Shown: positions 1 through 25,934 of the stretch, in pieces
Numbering within the stretch: position 1 is the stretch's first letter
Layout of the letters: each line of letters starts with the position of its first letter
Source: a virus
Strand: one strand, 5' to 3'
Length of the DNA stretch: 64,000 nucleotides
Virus record (IMG/VR): IMGVR_UViG_3300021247_000536
Coordinates: 115 to 64,114 of that record
The notes under the pieces: model-generated
Seen by the model: only the letters and a program-made list of their open reading frames with translations
Told to the model about the DNA's origin: nothing
Database searches by the model: none
Position numbers and translations under genes: made by a program

Positions 1-1985
1 GCCACCAAAGCTCCATTCATTCCACCTACAATACCAGATATCAATGTCGTAATAAAAGCTGTCTCAGCAACTGTCTTGCCCCACTTCTCTCCAACATCAA
101 GGTTCGCCCCTGTTATCTGATTTGCCTTCATGTTAACGCCCCACTCTGCCATTTGCTGCATAAGCTCCTGTACGTTTTCAGCGGCAATGTTTCTGAAAAT
201 TTCTTTAGTGGCTTCCTTGCGAGCAAAAGATTTAGTACCTCCGTCTGCAAGTATTCTCATATACTCAGAAGCAGACTTTCTTGTAACTGAAGCTCCAAAT
301 GCAGCTTCAGGGTTAACCATCTCAAGCATACCTTGAACAAGTCCACTTACAATTGAATAACTCTCGGCGTCCGAATCAGACATGCCGGCTTCTTTTCCTG
401 CTCTGTAATACCCTTCCATTGTAGTTGCAGTTCCGGCTGCTGCCTGTCCAGCCATGAGGGCAAGTTCACTTCCACCCAATGCTGCTCCTGCTGCGTATCC
501 AGTGCCGACCATTATACCCATAGTTACTGCAGAGCTTACGACCTTAGAAACAATACTATCCTCTATTGGAAGTAAAGGAGCTACCATCGTCTCTGTCCCA
601 AACGCAGCCCTATTGTAAACGTCATCAGTCCAACTAAACTCATCTCCATCTCCAAAGGCTTTAGGAAGATAAGCGAATCCCATAGTTGCGTCAACAATAG
701 CCATCGCCGCTGGGTTGTCAATGTTCTTTGCCTTCCACTCGAACACAGGACCTAGCTGACTTAGTCTAGCTTGCTCTTCTGCAGAGCGCTGCTTAGCCTG
801 ATCTTGAGCAATAAAGTAAAGAGGGTTTTCTTTTATAGTTATAGACAATGCAGACTTAGCGTCAGCAATATCTTTTTGATCTTTTTCTACAGCCATCATA
901 GCAGAAACAAACCCTTCATCAGCTATCAAAAGCTTGTAGGTATTCATTGTCTCTGACAACTTTGTCTGCTCCTCTGAAGTATTGGCAATATAGATGCCAT
1001 CAGCATCTTTTGGCCATGCCATCAACGTGTCGTATGCGCTATCATATGCAAGCTTCTGAGCGCCGTAGTTATTATCCAGTTCTTTTTTATTTATATAAAA
1101 AGATTCAGCAGATGCTTTTGAATAAAGATTAAGTGCATAAATATCAGAAGTAGCTCTTGCCTTTTGAAGCATTAGCTCATTTGAATACTCTAATGCTGGA
1201 GCAATCGTGGGAGAAATGGCAGATTGAATAATACCGGGCTCTCGCCTCCACTCTTGAGAGTAATACTGTTCATTTTTCTTAAGGTCATTATAAGCAGATG
1301 GATTAGTATTAAGAAGATACCAATCACTAAACGCCCTTGCCTTATCAAGAGTATTTCGCTCTTGAACAACTGGAGCTACAGCCACGCCAGGATATTGCGC
1401 CGCTACTTTAGTTTGATACTCTGGCGTTCCGGGAGTATTTGCCCTTACATTTGCATTTTGAAATTCTGAATTTTCAAATTCATTTTTACTAGCAACTAAA
1501 CGCCTAGATTCATAGTCCTGAACTCTTAAATTGTAAGCTATCGTTTCTGGAGCTGTAATATTTTTTATTACAGCCGGAGCAGAGCCCATCATTGGCTCTA
1601 AAACATCAGGAACATAATCAAGAAATTTTACAGCTAACGATCTATCATCAACAGGCTTAGGCTCATTATATTGATATCCTCTTACACTAGGCTTAGTCCC
1701 AGTATTAAGATTGTTGTTGTAAATAAATTGAGGTAGCTGAGCTGGCTTATTTGCCGCCGGCTGTGGTGTTGAAGGCGATGTAGAAGGAACCGCGTTTACA
1801 TCCCACTTCCGCGACTGAGCGAATCCCGGCATCTGTCCTGAAGGAGATGGTGTAGATGGTGAAGTCTGGGATGGACCAGCTACGTCTTTTTTTTTTACTT
1901 CTTGAGCGTCTGGTACAAACGACGGTGTCGGCCCTTTTTTAGGAGCATTATCTGGAGTAAATGAAGGTGTTGGCCCTGATCCCAT
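1..1985 (-). CDS. Giant internal virion/ejected protein, N-terminal part (runs off the window start)
   Basis: Not in the ORF track (no stop in window). ATG at 1985 follows the TAA of the upstream gene; spot-read in frame at both ends (MGSGPTPSFTPDNAPKKGPTP... to ...AFITTLISGIVGGMNGALV). Pro/Ser-rich start, then Gly/Ala-rich hydrophobic helices typical of ejected proteins. Confidence 0.8.
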   Translation of the reverse strand, partial: MGSGPTPSFTPDNAPKKGPTPSFVPDAQEVKKKDVAGPSQTSPSTPSPSGQMPGFAQSRKWDVNAVPSTSPSTPQPAANKPAQLPQFIYNNNLNTGTKPSVRGYQYNEPKPVDDRSLAVKFLDYVPDVLEPMMGSAPAVIKNITAPETIAYNLRVQDYESRRLVASKNEFENSEFQNANVRANTPGTPEYQTKVAAQYPGVAVAPVVQERNTLDKARAFSDWYLLNTNPSAYNDLKKNEQYYSQEWRREPGIIQSAISPTIAPALEYSNELMLQKARATSDIYALNLYSKASAESFYINKKELDNNYGAQKLAYDSAYDTLMAWPKDADGIYIANTSEEQTKLSETMNTYKLLIADEGFVSAMMAVEKDQKDIADAKSALSITIKENPLYFIAQDQAKQRSAEEQARLSQLGPVFEWKAKNIDNPAAMAIVDATMGFAYLPKAFGDGDEFSWTDDVYNRAAFGTETMVAPLLPIEDSIVSKVVSSAVTMGIMVGTGYAAGAALGGSELALMAGQAAAGTATTMEGYYRAGKEAGMSDSDAESYSIVSGLVQGMLEMVNPEAAFGASVTRKSASEYMRILADGGTKSFARKEATKEIFRNIAAENVQELMQQMAEWGVNMKANQITGANLDVGEKWGKTVAETAFITTLISGIVGGMNGALV

Positions 1986-3765: not shown

Positions 3766-4713
3766 TTATGCTGTCATTGTAGGAGATGCCAATCCGCTTC
3801 CGCCTAAGTCTGGAAGGTTTTGTCCTGGATTTATATTTGTTGGGTTATATATCCCTGTGCTTGATGGAAGAATTGGAGATTCTGGAGGAGTAGGTATAGG
3901 AGGTGTAATCGAAGGAGATCCTCCGCTAGAACTTCTCTTTAACATATCAGCCCAGTCCGACACACCCATTCCTCTTGCTGCTGCATTTGAAATGTTAGCA
4001 TAAGAATCTTGAGCTCCCTGAGCCCACTCTGCACGCTTCTGTAAACTTTTAGACAACGCTATTTCCATACGTCTCTGTGCAATCTTGTTTGTAAGATCGG
4101 ACGTAAAGGTATTGTAAAATTTCTGTTGTTCGTCAGCCCGAGCAAGAACTTGATTCATTGATCTTCCGACATTTGCTTGGCTACCTAATAGAGCCTGCAT
4201 TGTTCCGGCAACATCTCCTCCACCTGCCTGCACAATAGCTTGATTTGTTCCAGCTGCAGCCTGCTTAAGGTATCCCATGTCAGCTGCAAATTCAGATCCA
4301 GTATTCAGCGCCCGTCGCTTCTGGTTCATCTCCGCAAGAAATGCAAGCTGAGTAGGATCTGACGCGCCAGGCATGAGAGCCTCTGCCTGTTTCTTAGCTC
4401 TTCTTGCTTTTAATGATTGTAGAAATCCAAATGCAGTTCTTTCAATAGCACCTAGACCTTTATTATTTAAGGCGCCCGTTAACTTACCAATGATATCACT
4501 ATTACCTCCAGTAGCGCCACCGCCTCCTGGCTTCGATAAAAGCTTGCTCAATATCTGGCTTCCTCCGGCTGCGCCTGCTCCGCCTGCGGCTGTTCCTGCT
4601 GCCGCTCCTGCACCTGCAGCTATGCCACCTGCTGCCGCTGCACCACCTGCTGCTGTTCCTGCCGCTGCACCTGCTCCTGCAGCTATCCCTGCTCCTGATG
4701 CTATAAATGTCAT
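3766..4713 (-). CDS. Putative internal virion (ejection/pilot) protein with Gly/Ala-rich repeat
   Basis: Duplicated AGIAAGAGAAAGTAAGG N-terminus, helical AQ-rich core and Pro-rich tail; position typical of podovirus ejection genes. Confidence 0.65.
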   Translation of the reverse strand: MTFIASGAGIAAGAGAAAGTAAGGAAAAGGIAAGAGAAAGTAAGGAGAAGGSQILSKLLSKPGGGGATGGNSDIIGKLTGALNNKGLGAIERTAFGFLQSLKARRAKKQAEALMPGASDPTQLAFLAEMNQKRRALNTGSEFAADMGYLKQAAAGTNQAIVQAGGGDVAGTMQALLGSQANVGRSMNQVLARADEQQKFYNTFTSDLTNKIAQRRMEIALSKSLQKRAEWAQGAQDSYANISNAAARGMGVSDWADMLKRSSSGGSPSITPPIPTPPESPILPSSTGIYNPTNINPGQNLPDLGGSGLASPTMTA

Positions 4714-22278: not shown

Positions 22279-22674
22279 TTATAATCCGTTGATGTAATCG
22301 TATTCTGATTGATATGCTGTATACAAACTTGAGATCAAGTCGATACGGGCAAGTCGTAATGCATTTGGATATCCAGAGTTTGGCGATGCGTATCCATTTG
22401 ATACATTGCCAGGGACCATGCTTTCAATTGCATTGATCACGCCTTGTAACTCGCTGAGAGCAGCCAATTGCTCGTCTGTAGTTCCTTCGATTGCATTTAT
22501 AGACAAAGGATTTAAGTCAACTTCTTCTCCAACTGCTGCGTATACCTGTTCTCTGTATGCGCTGATATCGCTAAGGACGTACTGGTAAGAGTCTGGTCCG
22601 AAGAATACGCCAATGATTTGACTTAATTTTTTTTCTAGCTCTACGAGCTGTGTTTGCATTGCAAGTGCTTGCAT
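22279..22674 (-). CDS. Hypothetical protein, first gene of the packaging operon
   Basis: 131-aa ORF downstream of the minus-strand promoter at 22707-22737. Confidence 0.65.
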   Translation of the reverse strand: MQALAMQTQLVELEKKLSQIIGVFFGPDSYQYVLSDISAYREQVYAAVGEEVDLNPLSINAIEGTTDEQLAALSELQGVINAIESMVPGNVSNGYASPNSGYPNALRLARIDLISSLYTAYQSEYDYINGL

Positions 22675-22700
22675 GTGTTTACGTTTTGAATTGTTGTATA

Positions 22701-22740
22701 GAATTGCAAATCTACAATATAGTTTCTATATTTGCAATTC
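22701..22740. promoter_or_regulatory. Overlapping divergent Bacteroidota promoters inside an inverted repeat
   Basis: Plus: TTG(22704)-N20-TATATTTG(22727). Minus: TTG(22737)-N20-TAGATTTG(22714). Inverted repeat GAATTGCAAAT...ATTTGCAATTC. Confidence 0.8.
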
Positions 22741-22784
22741 CAGGTTACAAGGTTTGTTAATTAACAACTTAAACCTACATCACT

Positions 22785-23030
22785 ATGTCGGCTATCGCTA
22801 AACCAATGGCGGCTTCTACGTTGGCTTCCAACACAAATCCGTCTATCCTAGTAGAGCAAGTTAAGAATGTTACTTCACTTACAGTTCCAGCGATTGGAAA
22901 CTATGGTCCGAAGTATCTTCTTGTCTTCACTCTTATGGACAACACGCAGGTGCAGCTTTCGTATGCAAGTTCTGCAAACCAAGCTACTGCACTTGCTGCC
23001 TACAAGGCTGCCTTCTCTACTAATTTCTAG
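22785..23030 (+). CDS. Small stand-alone protein (possible virion decoration)
   Basis: 81 aa with its own promoter and terminator; codon style like the MCP. Confidence 0.7.
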   Translation: MSAIAKPMAASTLASNTNPSILVEQVKNVTSLTVPAIGNYGPKYLLVFTLMDNTQVQLSYASSANQATALAAYKAAFSTNF

Positions 23031-23050
23031 TAGAAAGCTAAGTGTTTTGA

Positions 23051-23088
23051 AAATAAACCTGCTGATAATCAGTGGGTTTATTTTTTTC
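23051..23088 (+). terminator. Intrinsic terminator
   Basis: AAATAAACCTGCTGAT-A-ATCAGTGGGTTTATTTTTTT hairpin with T tract. Confidence 0.7.
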
Positions 23089-23090
23089 TC

Positions 23091-23122
23091 TTGACTTTTC
23101 ACATTTCATAATTGTATATTTG
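23091..23122 (+). promoter_or_regulatory. Bacteroidota-type promoter
   Basis: TTG-N21-TATATTTG. Confidence 0.8.
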
Positions 23123-23127
23123 TCAAA

Positions 23128-23510
23128 GCCGATGCAAGGAGGCAAAGACATTTGGATAGTGTAAAAAGCTATTCGACTTTCCCCCGGAGGTACCTGCATT
23201 ACCAAAGGGGGATTTTTTATTATGCGGTTGTAGTCCAGTCATACCCGCGATACATCACACAGTGTATCAAATATGACAGAAGTATTGTTCACTGCGCTAA
23301 CGTGAAAAGCTTGCACTGGTTAAAGGCCCAACAAGCGACTGCACACTCGAGAGGGAAGACGTTAGCACCCGGCCGCAGGTTACGGGATACTTGGTGATAG
23401 GATGCTTATCTAACTCTGAGTGTTGAAATACAGGGTTGATGATCTGAATCAGATGGTGGTTGAAGCTAGATAATGTAGGCTCTCCCCTCTGTGCAGGATA
23501 AGCCTTGCTA
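23128..23510 (+). ncRNA. Candidate structured RNA / long leader (attenuator-like 5' part)
   Basis: About 400 nt after the promoter with no convincing ORF; many stems (GTCATA/TATGAC, GATACA/TGTATC, GCTAACGT/ACGTTAGC, CTC-GAGA-GGG, AGGCT/AGCCT) and a terminator-like hairpin at 23180-23218. Confidence 0.55.
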
Positions 23511-23541
23511 TTGTTTGAATTGTAATAACAAAAAACAAAAT

Positions 23542-24003
23542 ATGAGACACCGGTCAAAAAGTAATTTCAAAGGGTTCTTTAATGGATATCCTTATGCCTT
23601 CAATGTTGTTGAAGAAGCTGCGTCAGAGAACAATGCCGAAGATGTTAACGAGGCTGCATGCGAGCAGATCAATACCTTGCTCTACGAATCCCTGCCTTTT
23701 GATCCAGAGGAGTTTGGGTTCAAGCCAAGCTCTGATCAGATGGTGTATACCAATTCTTCTGGAGACACATTCTCGAGATCTAAGAAGACGTATGGATACT
23801 GGAAGTTCTGTATTTTTGAAAAGCCAGAGTCTGAGATGGTGATGTACATTCCCAACATGCTCATCGCTCACATTGTGCTTACATCTATCGGTGTGCTAGA
23901 GCGTTGTGATCTCAACAAGTCAGACATGTGCCCAAACAATCCTGAAATTTCTGGAGTGTGCGCTGTGTGTGAAAGCGGAAAAAAGTGTAACTTTGAGCGT
24001 TAA
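23542..24003 (+). CDS. Hypothetical protein with C-terminal Cys cluster
   Basis: ATG 23542 after an A-rich leader; ends CPNN...CAVCESGKKC. Confidence 0.65.
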   Translation: MRHRSKSNFKGFFNGYPYAFNVVEEAASENNAEDVNEAACEQINTLLYESLPFDPEEFGFKPSSDQMVYTNSSGDTFSRSKKTYGYWKFCIFEKPESEMVMYIPNMLIAHIVLTSIGVLERCDLNKSDMCPNNPEISGVCAVCESGKKCNFER

Positions 24004-24014
24004 CTCAACGAGCT

Positions 24015-25934
24015 ATGCCATACGTAACAGAGACGCTGATTCAGAATACCGGCGAGACCGATTCAGATTTTGTAATTAGGGTTAACACGTTTATAGCTGA
24101 TCAGGCTTATTACTACGAAACTATTGGTGGAGGATACCCTCCTGCTCCATTTGGATCCCGATCATTCAAAGGGTTCCCGCCAGATAAGCCGTCATCTGAC
24201 ATAGTTTTCTATGATTCAGTGGCAGCTCAGGCGAAGCGTATCGTTACGTTTAGTTACGAAAACACATACTACTATATCTACATTGGGGCGTCGCCTCCGA
24301 TCCCTGGACCTCCGCCATCACCTACAGTTGGGAACATTGTCATATGGGGGCCTAGTGCTACTCTTAATGACGGTGTTCTTCAGATCAATACGCTGGCGCC
24401 AAACTTTATCAACCTGTCTCCAGCAACAGTTGCTGGTGAGGCTGTAGAGTATTCTCAGTTTACTAGTGCACTTTCTGGCTATGTTCCTACGTCGCGAAAC
24501 ATAACCATAAATGGGGTTACTCAAGATCTTTCGGTAGACAGAACATGGACAGTTGTTGGCGGCGTTACGTCTGTTGGCATGTCAATGCCGAGCGAATTTT
24601 CTGTTTCAGGAAGTCCAGTCACCGGGTCCGGGGTCCTTTCCGCATCATGGCTTCCAGTCACTGGAGGTTATGTGTTGGCCGGACCCGCTCCTGGATCTCC
24701 TTCAGCAATACCTTCATTCAGGCCTTTAAGCGCACTTGACATCCCAGATATTTCAGCGACTTATCTGAAGGTCAGCACCGCAGCACTGACTTACTATCCG
24801 TTGACAAACCCGTCAGGGTATATCAGTGGAATCACATCTTCTGATGTTACAACAGCCCTTGGGTATACGCCTTACAATTCATCAAACCCTGCAGGCTACA
24901 TAACAACAACCGCCCTTTCAGGGTATTTAACAACAGCTACAGCCGCAGCTACGTATCAACCGATAGGATCGTACCTTACAACTATCAGCGGACTGAATAT
25001 CAGTTTGTTGACAAACGACTCCGGATATATAACATCATCAGCCCTTTCTGGATATCTGACATCAGCTACTGCCGCCGCCACCTATTACCCATTAACCAAT
25101 CCATCCGGATATATTAGTGGCATTACATCTGGCGACGTTACCACGGCTCTTGGGTTTACTCCATACGACAGCTCCAATCCGGCTGGATATATCACCACCT
25201 CGGCATTGTCCGGGTATCTTACTTCTGTAACTGCGGCAGCCACCTATTACCCGCTTACAAACCCTAGTGGATATATCTCTGGCATAACTTCTGGTAATGT
25301 AACTACTGCACTTGGATATACTCCTGTGAATAAGGCAGGGGATACCATGACTGGTCTTTTGCAATTTAGCGGAACGAGTCATGCGGGAGTAAGGCTTAAT
25401 AACCTTACCACTGCTCAGAGAACAGCACTTTCTGCAACAGCTGGAATGACTGTTTTTGATACAGACCTTGGAGTTTTAGCTCAATACACAGGAACGTATT
25501 GGAAATACGAGCAGGAGAAGGTTGCTACCAACACAACGACCACTGTTACTACAGCGGCAAATATCACAGGGCTATCTCACCCTCTTGAGGCAAACTCGAT
25601 TTACAAGGTGGAAGGATATTATTCTGTAGCATGTAGCAGCACCGGGGGTATCAAGTTCACTCAGACAGTTCCGTCTGGGGCTACAGTGGAAGTAAACTAT
25701 GACGGCATCGCCGGAACTGCAGCAACATCTATCAAGATAAGATCTACAGCTTCTGGAACGCTAACTCCTAACGCCATAAACACAGCCAACTTATCGTCTG
25801 GAGTTATGGTTTCAGGAGTGATAACTACGGCAGCTACCGCAGGAACAGTGCAGTTTCAGTTTGCCTCTGGCGTTGCAACACAGACATCCACTATTACGCC
25901 TCGATCATTCGTTAAACTAACTAAGGTAGGATAA
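24015..25934 (+). CDS. Tail fibre/spike-like protein with internal repeats
   Basis: T/S/G/A-rich; three TYYPLTNPSGYISGITS-DVTTALG-TP units; GYTPVNKAGDTMTG fibre motif. Confidence 0.75.
   Translation: MPYVTETLIQNTGETDSDFVIRVNTFIADQAYYYETIGGGYPPAPFGSRSFKGFPPDKPSSDIVFYDSVAAQAKRIVTFSYENTYYYIYIGASPPIPGPPPSPTVGNIVIWGPSATLNDGVLQINTLAPNFINLSPATVAGEAVEYSQFTSALSGYVPTSRNITINGVTQDLSVDRTWTVVGGVTSVGMSMPSEFSVSGSPVTGSGVLSASWLPVTGGYVLAGPAPGSPSAIPSFRPLSALDIPDISATYLKVSTAALTYYPLTNPSGYISGITSSDVTTALGYTPYNSSNPAGYITTTALSGYLTTATAAATYQPIGSYLTTISGLNISLLTNDSGYITSSALSGYLTSATAAATYYPLTNPSGYISGITSGDVTTALGFTPYDSSNPAGYITTSALSGYLTSVTAAATYYPLTNPSGYISGITSGNVTTALGYTPVNKAGDTMTGLLQFSGTSHAGVRLNNLTTAQRTALSATAGMTVFDTDLGVLAQYTGTYWKYEQEKVATNTTTTVTTAANITGLSHPLEANSIYKVEGYYSVACSSTGGIKFTQTVPSGATVEVNYDGIAGTAATSIKIRSTASGTLTPNAINTANLSSGVMVSGVITTAATAGTVQFQFASGVATQTSTITPRSFVKLTKVG

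Follow-up and report, generated by a model that had tools for sequence, protein, structure and literature searches.

A short stretch of phage DNA in which a promoter is followed closely by a terminator-like hairpin, with co-oriented genes beyond it, raises the question of what the stretch is for. An earlier note on this DNA had proposed that a kissing contact between two hairpin loops, or an alternative fold, could gate transcription into a fibre cassette or release a small RNA of ~90 nt. Judging from the locus and its relatives, we conclude that the leader is a real RNA element and that it probably gates transcription.

The window (the whole 64,000-nt stretch of DNA that was analysed) comes from a 64.6-kb virus record that is 92% complete. 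Its minus strand encodes a large terminase and a portal protein, and a crAss-type muzzle protein is also present; the lake-water phage is classed from its sequence as crAss-like because these three proteins are encoded. A search of INPHARED phage DNA gave no match, and a tRNA/tmRNA scan found none.

Methods

Related loci were collected from IMG/VR by a terminase alignment search, which yielded 160. In distant clades, the same genomic site was located by homologues of the 81-aa gene that precedes the leader and of the first downstream ORF. Across all loci, the interiors of 489 distinct terminator-like hairpins were compared with the 150 nt that precede each of them to find exact complements; the 46 hairpins with a TAnnTTTG box 45-135 nt upstream formed the promoter-proximal set. 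Downstream genes were examined for 23 modules, 22 of which had readable downstream sequence.

Results

Anatomy of the leader

The features of the locus are collected in Table 1.

Table 1. Features of the leader and its surroundings, in window coordinates
Feature	Position	Strand	Remarks
81-aa gene	22785-23030		between the divergent structural block and the plus-strand cassette
Hairpin with A run before and T run after	23049-23085	+	found by terminator scan
Promoter	23091-23122	+	10/12 matches; overlaps -7 box TATATTTG at 23115-22
Hairpin 1	23128-23143	+	3-bp stem, 10-nt loop; -2.5 kcal/mol alone
Linker AAAGACAUU	23144-23152	+	conserved, single-stranded, directly 5' of hairpin 2
Hairpin 2	23152-23176	+	23152-60 with 23168-76; 9-bp stem, 7-nt loop; -6.9 kcal/mol
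Two-tier terminator-like hairpin	23180-23218	+	-15.1 kcal/mol
Conserved structured RNA, ~290 nt	23224-23510	+	starts 5 nt after the U tract
153-aa ORF	ATG at 23539	+	first downstream co-oriented ORF; syntenic homologues in relatives
639-aa repeat-rich fibre-like ORF	24015-25934	+	second downstream co-oriented ORF

The consensus promoter that the earlier note had placed directly upstream of the leader is there, with TTGACT at 23091-96, an 18-nt spacer and TATATT at 23115-20. The consensus of the Bacteroidota -7 box is TAnnTTTG, and Bacteroidota use such promoters together with hairpin-plus-U terminators (PMC7366714). A TAnnTTTG box also stands upstream of the leaders in L088, L032, L007, L019, L021, L098, L103 and other related loci. 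Transcription would be expected to start at about 23125-23128. The hairpin at 23049-23085 is predicted to end the 81-aa gene and to insulate the leader promoter, and an equivalent hairpin with a T run follows the homologue of this gene in every related clade.

Both hairpins described in the earlier note are present as well. In the GCC...GGC hairpin (hairpin 1), 23128-30 pair with 23141-43 around the loop at 23131-40. The terminator-like hairpin with its T tract occupies 23180-23218 and consists of a 6-bp GC basal stem (23180-85 with 23207-12), a 3x3 internal loop, a 4-bp apical stem (23189-92 with 23200-03) and a 7-nt apical loop (23193-99). Six U residues (23213-18) follow it directly, and it thus has in its sequence the GC-rich stem-loop and U run of an intrinsic (Rho-independent) terminator. 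A simple terminator scan missed it because the scan limited loops to 3-8 nt and the hairpin is two-tiered. The minimum free energy fold of 23121-23225 contains exactly three hairpins (-30.8 kcal/mol, z = -2.84), and none of 200 shuffled sequences folded as well.

The loop-loop complementarity reported in the earlier note could also be traced. Positions 23132-36 pair with 23195-99 and 23138-39 with 23193-94, so that the kissing helix has five plus two pairs around one bulged A (A23137) and a duplex energy of -7.2 kcal/mol. In the window alone, the duplex energy of the hairpin interior with the upstream leader was no outlier against shuffles, and by our own count a 5-mer match between loops of such sizes is expected by chance in ~2-5% of cases. 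Because the match within the window is no better than chance, the significance of the kissing pair has to come from the relatives. No other copy of the leader module was found within the window, and the phage has one copy.

Two further readings of the leader were considered and rejected. A leader-peptide attenuator was rejected because the sole leader frame (TTG at 23152) extends over 81 codons as far as 23397, and indels disrupt it in the close relatives L082 and L083. The other concerns a perfect Shine-Dalgarno-like AAGGAGG at 23137-23143, which runs from the loop of hairpin 1 into its 3' arm. L021 likewise has this heptamer before its AAAGACAUU, and other family members lack it; a Shine-Dalgarno use was rejected because the heptamer is not general in the family. 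Bacteroidota seldom use a Shine-Dalgarno sequence.

On the minus strand, a TAGATTTG box lies at 22707-22714, ~33 nt upstream of the ATG at 22674, and is likely the promoter of the terminase/structural operon. Since the box is only ~33 nt from the ATG, the leader of the minus-strand operon would be short and have no kissing-loop module.

Substitutions in close relatives

The metagenome contigs L082 and L083 are 88% and 85% identical to the window, respectively, over 22600-24100, flanking genes included. Over the non-coding stretch 23020-23560 both are 94% identical to it, and 1-nt indels break the only long frame there. Because of this identity and the frame-breaking indels, we regard 23020-23560 as non-coding and constrained.

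In the 94-nt leader, L082 differs from the window by seven substitutions, none of which breaks any of the 29 proposed pairs. The pair A23132-U23199 is replaced by G-C, a compensatory change in which both kissing partners changed together. In hairpin 2, G-U has become A-U at 23155/23173 and U-A has become U-G at 23157/23171, with pairing kept in both cases; the remaining three substitutions are in loops. When seven random substitutions were simulated, leaving every pair unbroken had P = 0.026, a double compensatory change within the kissing helix had P = 0.016, and both outcomes jointly had P = 0.004. Clustering for more pairs of close relatives in which within-clade covariation might be read found none further.

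Pairing in distant clades at the same genomic position

Gene order is kept in the distant clades: the gene, a terminator, a TAnnTTTG promoter, a leader of 95-165 nt and a GC hairpin with a U tract follow one another. The leader sequences are unrelated, and nhmmer alignments start only at the terminator. The hairpin and U tract are kept at the same position, with covarying stems, in the clades of L086, L088, L032, L005 and L007.

Complementarity to the terminator recurs in these clades with other letters. In L088 a 7-nt hairpin loop matches the terminator loop with seven perfect pairs (10 with one wobble), and in L032 two 7-nt loops match at 7/7 positions. A leader segment pairs with the terminator loop at eight positions in L005 and at 11/11 positions in L007/L093. 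The L086 clade alone departs from this pattern: the partner of its first hairpin loop is a small hairpin immediately ahead of the terminator and not the terminator loop; a GAGGG/CCCUC helix in this clade could compete with a terminator arm. The compensatory change in L082 and the unrelated but complementary letters of at least five same-position clades indicate that the loop-loop pairing is under selection.

A wider family in terminase-related phages

Pairs of 7-13 nt were found elsewhere in L008, L019, L021, L052, L053, L069, L079, L098, L102, L103 and L108. The upstream partner typically lies 60-75 nt before the terminator hairpin, and a TAnnTTTG box precedes most cases. In the majority of members this partner occupies a hairpin loop, frequently one of exactly 7 nt, and a middle hairpin comes next. 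The family sequences could not be sensibly aligned with MAFFT, and family counts were taken from a home-made, script-based architecture scan, by which 19 of the 46 promoter-proximal hairpins form at least seven perfect pairs with the transcribed leader, compared to 4.0 expected (maximum of 8 in 200 shuffles), and six form at least nine, compared to 0.34 expected. At least seven pairs occurred at a rate of 43% in promoter-proximal hairpins vs 13% in other terminator-like hairpins, the terminator finder being crude and the latter control class holding many chance hairpins in coding DNA.

These results bear on the simplest explanation of the locus, an ordinary promoter-proximal terminator whose loop complementarity is coincidental. 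Such a terminator would account for the lack of significance of the match within the window, but it leaves unexplained the compensatory change in L082, the fact that the pairing recurs in many clades with other letters, and the surplus relative to shuffles. We consider it extremely unlikely.

The exact 9-mer AAAGACAUU immediately precedes the middle hairpin in the window clade and, although their leaders are otherwise unrelated, in L019, L021, L098, L103 and L027 as well; forms with one mismatch occur in L102, L147 and others. It was found in seven independent non-coding contexts; the other 46 occurrences in the data are mostly in coding DNA, where we read several copies as a conserved terminase peptide. 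A role for AAAGACAUU as a DNA promoter element at a fixed distance was rejected, its distance from the -7 box ranging from ~19 to 37 nt by our own count. One further copy, in L019 at ~296 (minus strand), is preceded at a distance of 18 nt by a TATATTTG box, and the start codon of the 81-aa homologue comes 4 nt after it; because this copy has no terminator, AAAGACAUU may have a role of its own in 5' leaders.

Exact-pattern scans of IMG/VR with the terminator hairpin and with the core of the downstream RNA returned only loci that were already known. Two of the related contigs carry other RNA genes. L069 has three tandem tRNA genes at 425-694 (plus strand), on the strand opposite to its kissing-loop leader. 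At 969-1164 (plus strand), L008 matches the Rfam permuted tmRNA RF04321 with 52.1 bits (gathering score 47); the large terminase of that contig lies ~0.7 kb further downstream.

Operon genes downstream of the modules

In the window, no TAnnTTTG box was found between the terminator (U tract 23213-18) and the 153-aa and 639-aa ORFs. The same arrangement is general: in 21 of the 22 readable modules the hairpin is followed at a distance of 10-442 nt by a co-oriented ORF, and the gap contains no TAnnTTTG box. Since co-oriented genes without a promoter of their own usually follow it, we regard the module as an operon leader and not as a free-standing gene. The operon headed by the module contains the large terminase in L019, L108 and L147, and other first genes after modules encode RNase H and a PAPS-reductase-like protein. 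Because the genes that follow are of such mixed kinds, a 'late-gene gate' is not a general description of the module. A position ahead of promoterless co-oriented genes fits gating and the release of a ~90-nt RNA alike.

The second of these outcomes may be the whole purpose of the module. It could be a free-standing gene for a trans-acting small RNA, with the ~90-nt terminated transcript as its product and read-through as incidental. The kissing fold would then tie the 5' part to the 3' hairpin and stabilise the RNA, and the exposed AAAGACAUU linker would serve as a seed or bind a protein. In Bacteroides, promoter-to-terminator units of such a size are typical small-RNA genes (PMC7366714), the short tR'-terminated transcript of Stx phages is the regulatory RNA StxS (PMC7547250), and the conserved single-stranded 9-mer is indeed seed-like. 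In addition, one module, that of L096, has a promoter box and an ORF on the opposite strand behind it, the surroundings expected of a free-standing small-RNA gene. However, because 21 of the 22 readable modules precede co-oriented genes with no promoter box in the gap, read-through must occur, and the complement of the 9-mer is absent from every transcribed strand of the nearly complete phage genome. We judge a small-RNA gene of this kind fairly unlikely as the sole explanation, although it is compatible with a cis-acting gate, as StxS would suggest by analogy.

The conserved ~290-nt RNA downstream

In the phage of the window, the leader is followed by a second RNA, which is 94% identical to L082/L083 with frame-breaking indels; of its 50 predicted pairs, 28 show compensatory changes. 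A T-loop-like GGUUnnAGUCCAG stands at its start, and it matches no Rfam family. Model R1 recovered the RNA at full length in four clades alone, those of the window, L086, L088 and L032; behind the modules of L102 and L010 the model matched in part. Since the leader module occurs without this RNA, for example in L005, the two are independent.

In the conserved 3' part of the RNA, GUGCAGG at 23491-23497 is complementary to the apical loop 23193-99 of the terminator-like hairpin, with six pairs and a wobble in the window, whereas in L082 all seven pairs are perfect. This may represent a third pairing site or a coincidence (~8% by our own count). In L086, whose clade has 55% identity, the conserved RNA is separated from the 153-aa ORF homologue by an extra ORF at 4011-4616 (minus strand) that, read by eye, carries an HNH-endonuclease motif. 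This ORF makes the interval 0.7 kb longer than that of the window.

The proximity of the two RNAs could point to another function for the leader. RNase E sites are of the type R-N-W-U-U, and the linker AAAGACAUU fits this type. The pseudoknotted leader could guard read-through RNAs from decay that depends on the 5' end or, in another form of the same idea, a cleavage site could be marked at the linker, with the U tract as a weak stop only. The hairpin and U tract lie 5 nt before the first helix of the 290-nt RNA in four clades, as a processing or stabilising module might. Against this, the module also stands immediately ahead of ORFs, and it occurs in phages that lack the 290-nt RNA (L005), and its hairpin and U tract resemble the gene-end terminators of the same phages. 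Stabilisation or processing is therefore, in our estimate, a quite unlikely function.

Discussion

What can be read from the phage sequences themselves is the anatomy of the leader, its position, the conservation of the linker and a pairing that persists while its letters change. On balance we lean towards the view that the module is a conserved leader RNA of crAss-like Bacteroidota phages that acts in cis as a transcription gate; what we infer are the termination itself, which way the pairing would act on it, and the part of any factor.

Under this cis-acting gate, host RNA polymerase would start at ~23126 at the sigma-A-type promoter and would first transcribe the weak hairpin at the 5' end, then AAAGACAUU and the middle hairpin. 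The two-tier intrinsic terminator would come next, and most transcripts would end by default at 23213-18 to give an RNA of ~90 nt. The loop of hairpin 1 and the apical loop of the terminator would kiss, forming a complex that coexists with the terminator stem and compacts the leader. Since neither the 290-nt RNA nor the fibre cassette has a promoter of its own, read-through alone would reach them. The loop-loop lock, together with the linker and middle hairpin, would set the share of polymerases that pass, or would let a factor change that share.

Of the two forms of gate in the earlier note, the kissing contact has gained from the comparison of relatives, in which it is selected and covaries, whereas the alternative fold has lost ground, as the pairing uses the loop of the terminator and not its arms. 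Because the loop and not the arms is engaged, the pairing does not compete for base pairs with the terminator stem. Neither terminator arm is sequestered, and mutually exclusive helices therefore offer no obvious switch. The kissing complex and the full terminator should be sterically compatible, since a middle hairpin and linkers of 10-25 nt separate the partners.

Among known systems, the lambdoid PR' - 6S/StxS - tR' unit produces a short RNA by default, and StxS has its own function (PMC7547250). The leader of the window resembles PR'-tR' in having a constitutive host-type promoter, an intrinsic terminator within ~100-200 nt and phage genes downstream that would be reached by read-through. 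Unlike the lambdoid unit, which is released by the antiterminator Q, no Q-like protein or Q-binding site was identified here, and Pfam and PHROG scans found no antiterminator gene among 20 ORFs. The linker and hairpin 2 do resemble the linear box and hairpin of lambda-type antitermination, in layout alone. The pairing between a 5' hairpin loop and the terminator loop is a further difference, the lambdoid unit having no such conserved pairing, and the hosts of the phage module are Bacteroidota, with a promoter type different from that of the lambdoid unit.

Pairing between an upstream loop and a terminator hairpin is also found in riboswitches. In the guanidine-IV (mepA) riboswitch, an upstream hairpin loop kisses the loop of the terminator-forming hairpin, as in the phage module, and this favours read-through; the conserved loops are the ligand site, the hairpins are adjacent, and kissing sterically hinders completion of the terminator stem (PMC11611296). 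The phage module, in contrast, has free loop letters, a middle hairpin and long linkers between the partners, and no Rfam match. In the cobalamin riboswitch, an L5-L13 kissing loop couples the upstream domain to the regulatory hairpin of the expression platform. That riboswitch needs a large conserved cobalamin aptamer, which is absent from the phage module.

If the leader were a ligand-sensing riboswitch of either kind, in which a loop kisses the terminator, it would have a working part of known design, since such kissing is what operates guanidine-IV (PMC11611296). The riboswitch scan named in the earlier note came out empty, with no Rfam match in the window at the gathering score. At E <= 10, the interval 22600-24400 matched only unrelated families at chance level (snoRNAs, a miRNA and a 3' UTR) and no riboswitch, and the modules of 10 related loci matched nothing. 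The loop letters, which are the ligand site in the guanidine-IV class, vary freely here, and the conserved part is the 9-nt linker only; the long linkers and middle hairpin would also make steric exclusion of the full terminator stem unlikely. Because there is no conserved ligand pocket and no competition for the stem, a riboswitch or a simple alternative fold is unlikely, and we rate the riboswitch as highly improbable.

In P4 immunity, RNA pairing favours termination; the P4 CI and P1/P7 c4 RNAs are processed, act in trans and serve prophage immunity. The phage module shares with them short complementary segments within one leader transcript, through which premature termination is controlled in those systems, and letters that vary among related phages. 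It differs in that both partners are hairpin loops ~60 nt apart on a ~90-nt RNA, in a crAss-like phage of lytic type. Trans-acting control of this immunity type would have the loops of released leaders pair with nascent leaders and alter termination, with a self-titrating timer or a phage-specific 'address' as the outcome. Its appeal lies in pairs that are free in sequence yet strictly complementary, with letters that differ between phages and between copies, much as heteroimmune RNA-based systems vary their complementary pairs (P4 CI seqB with seqA/seqC; P1/P7 c4). However, both partners lie on one 90-nt molecule, so intramolecular pairing should win; the phage has one copy of the module and therefore no second target; and neutral compensatory drift would account for the varied letters too. 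The family models of the C4 antisense RNA and P4 CI RNA gave no match in Rfam searches of the window and of 22600-24400. We regard control in trans as very unlikely.

The phi29 pRNA, whose loops pair between molecules to form a ring on the portal of protein-primed phages, offers a parallel in that its sequence is hardly conserved while its secondary structure is, and its complementary loops covary. Unlike phi29, the present phage has a classical large terminase, and the pairing seen here is within one predicted RNA. The family model of the phi29-type pRNA had no match in Rfam searches of the window and of 22600-24400.

It is also conceivable, if distinctly improbable, that the module is an RNA-only, address-coded switch in which the released leader RNA pairs with nascent leaders or multimerises as pRNA does. 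If this were true, read-through of operons would be timed without a protein antiterminator, and the free loop letters would keep operons or co-infecting phages from cross-talk.

Conclusions

The kissing-loop terminator leader module is uncatalogued: Rfam 15 has no matching family for it, and a full-text literature search found no description of such a leader. To our knowledge, natural kissing-loop terminators are few and are all ligand-sensing riboswitches; the module would join these. At ~90 nt it is compact, which suits direct biochemical and structural study. We know of nothing that has been established on the timing of host-polymerase-dependent genes in crAss-like and other Bacteroidota phages. 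Being free in sequence, strict in pairing and placed at the head of many operons, the module offers a testable handle on gene timing in Bacteroidota phages.
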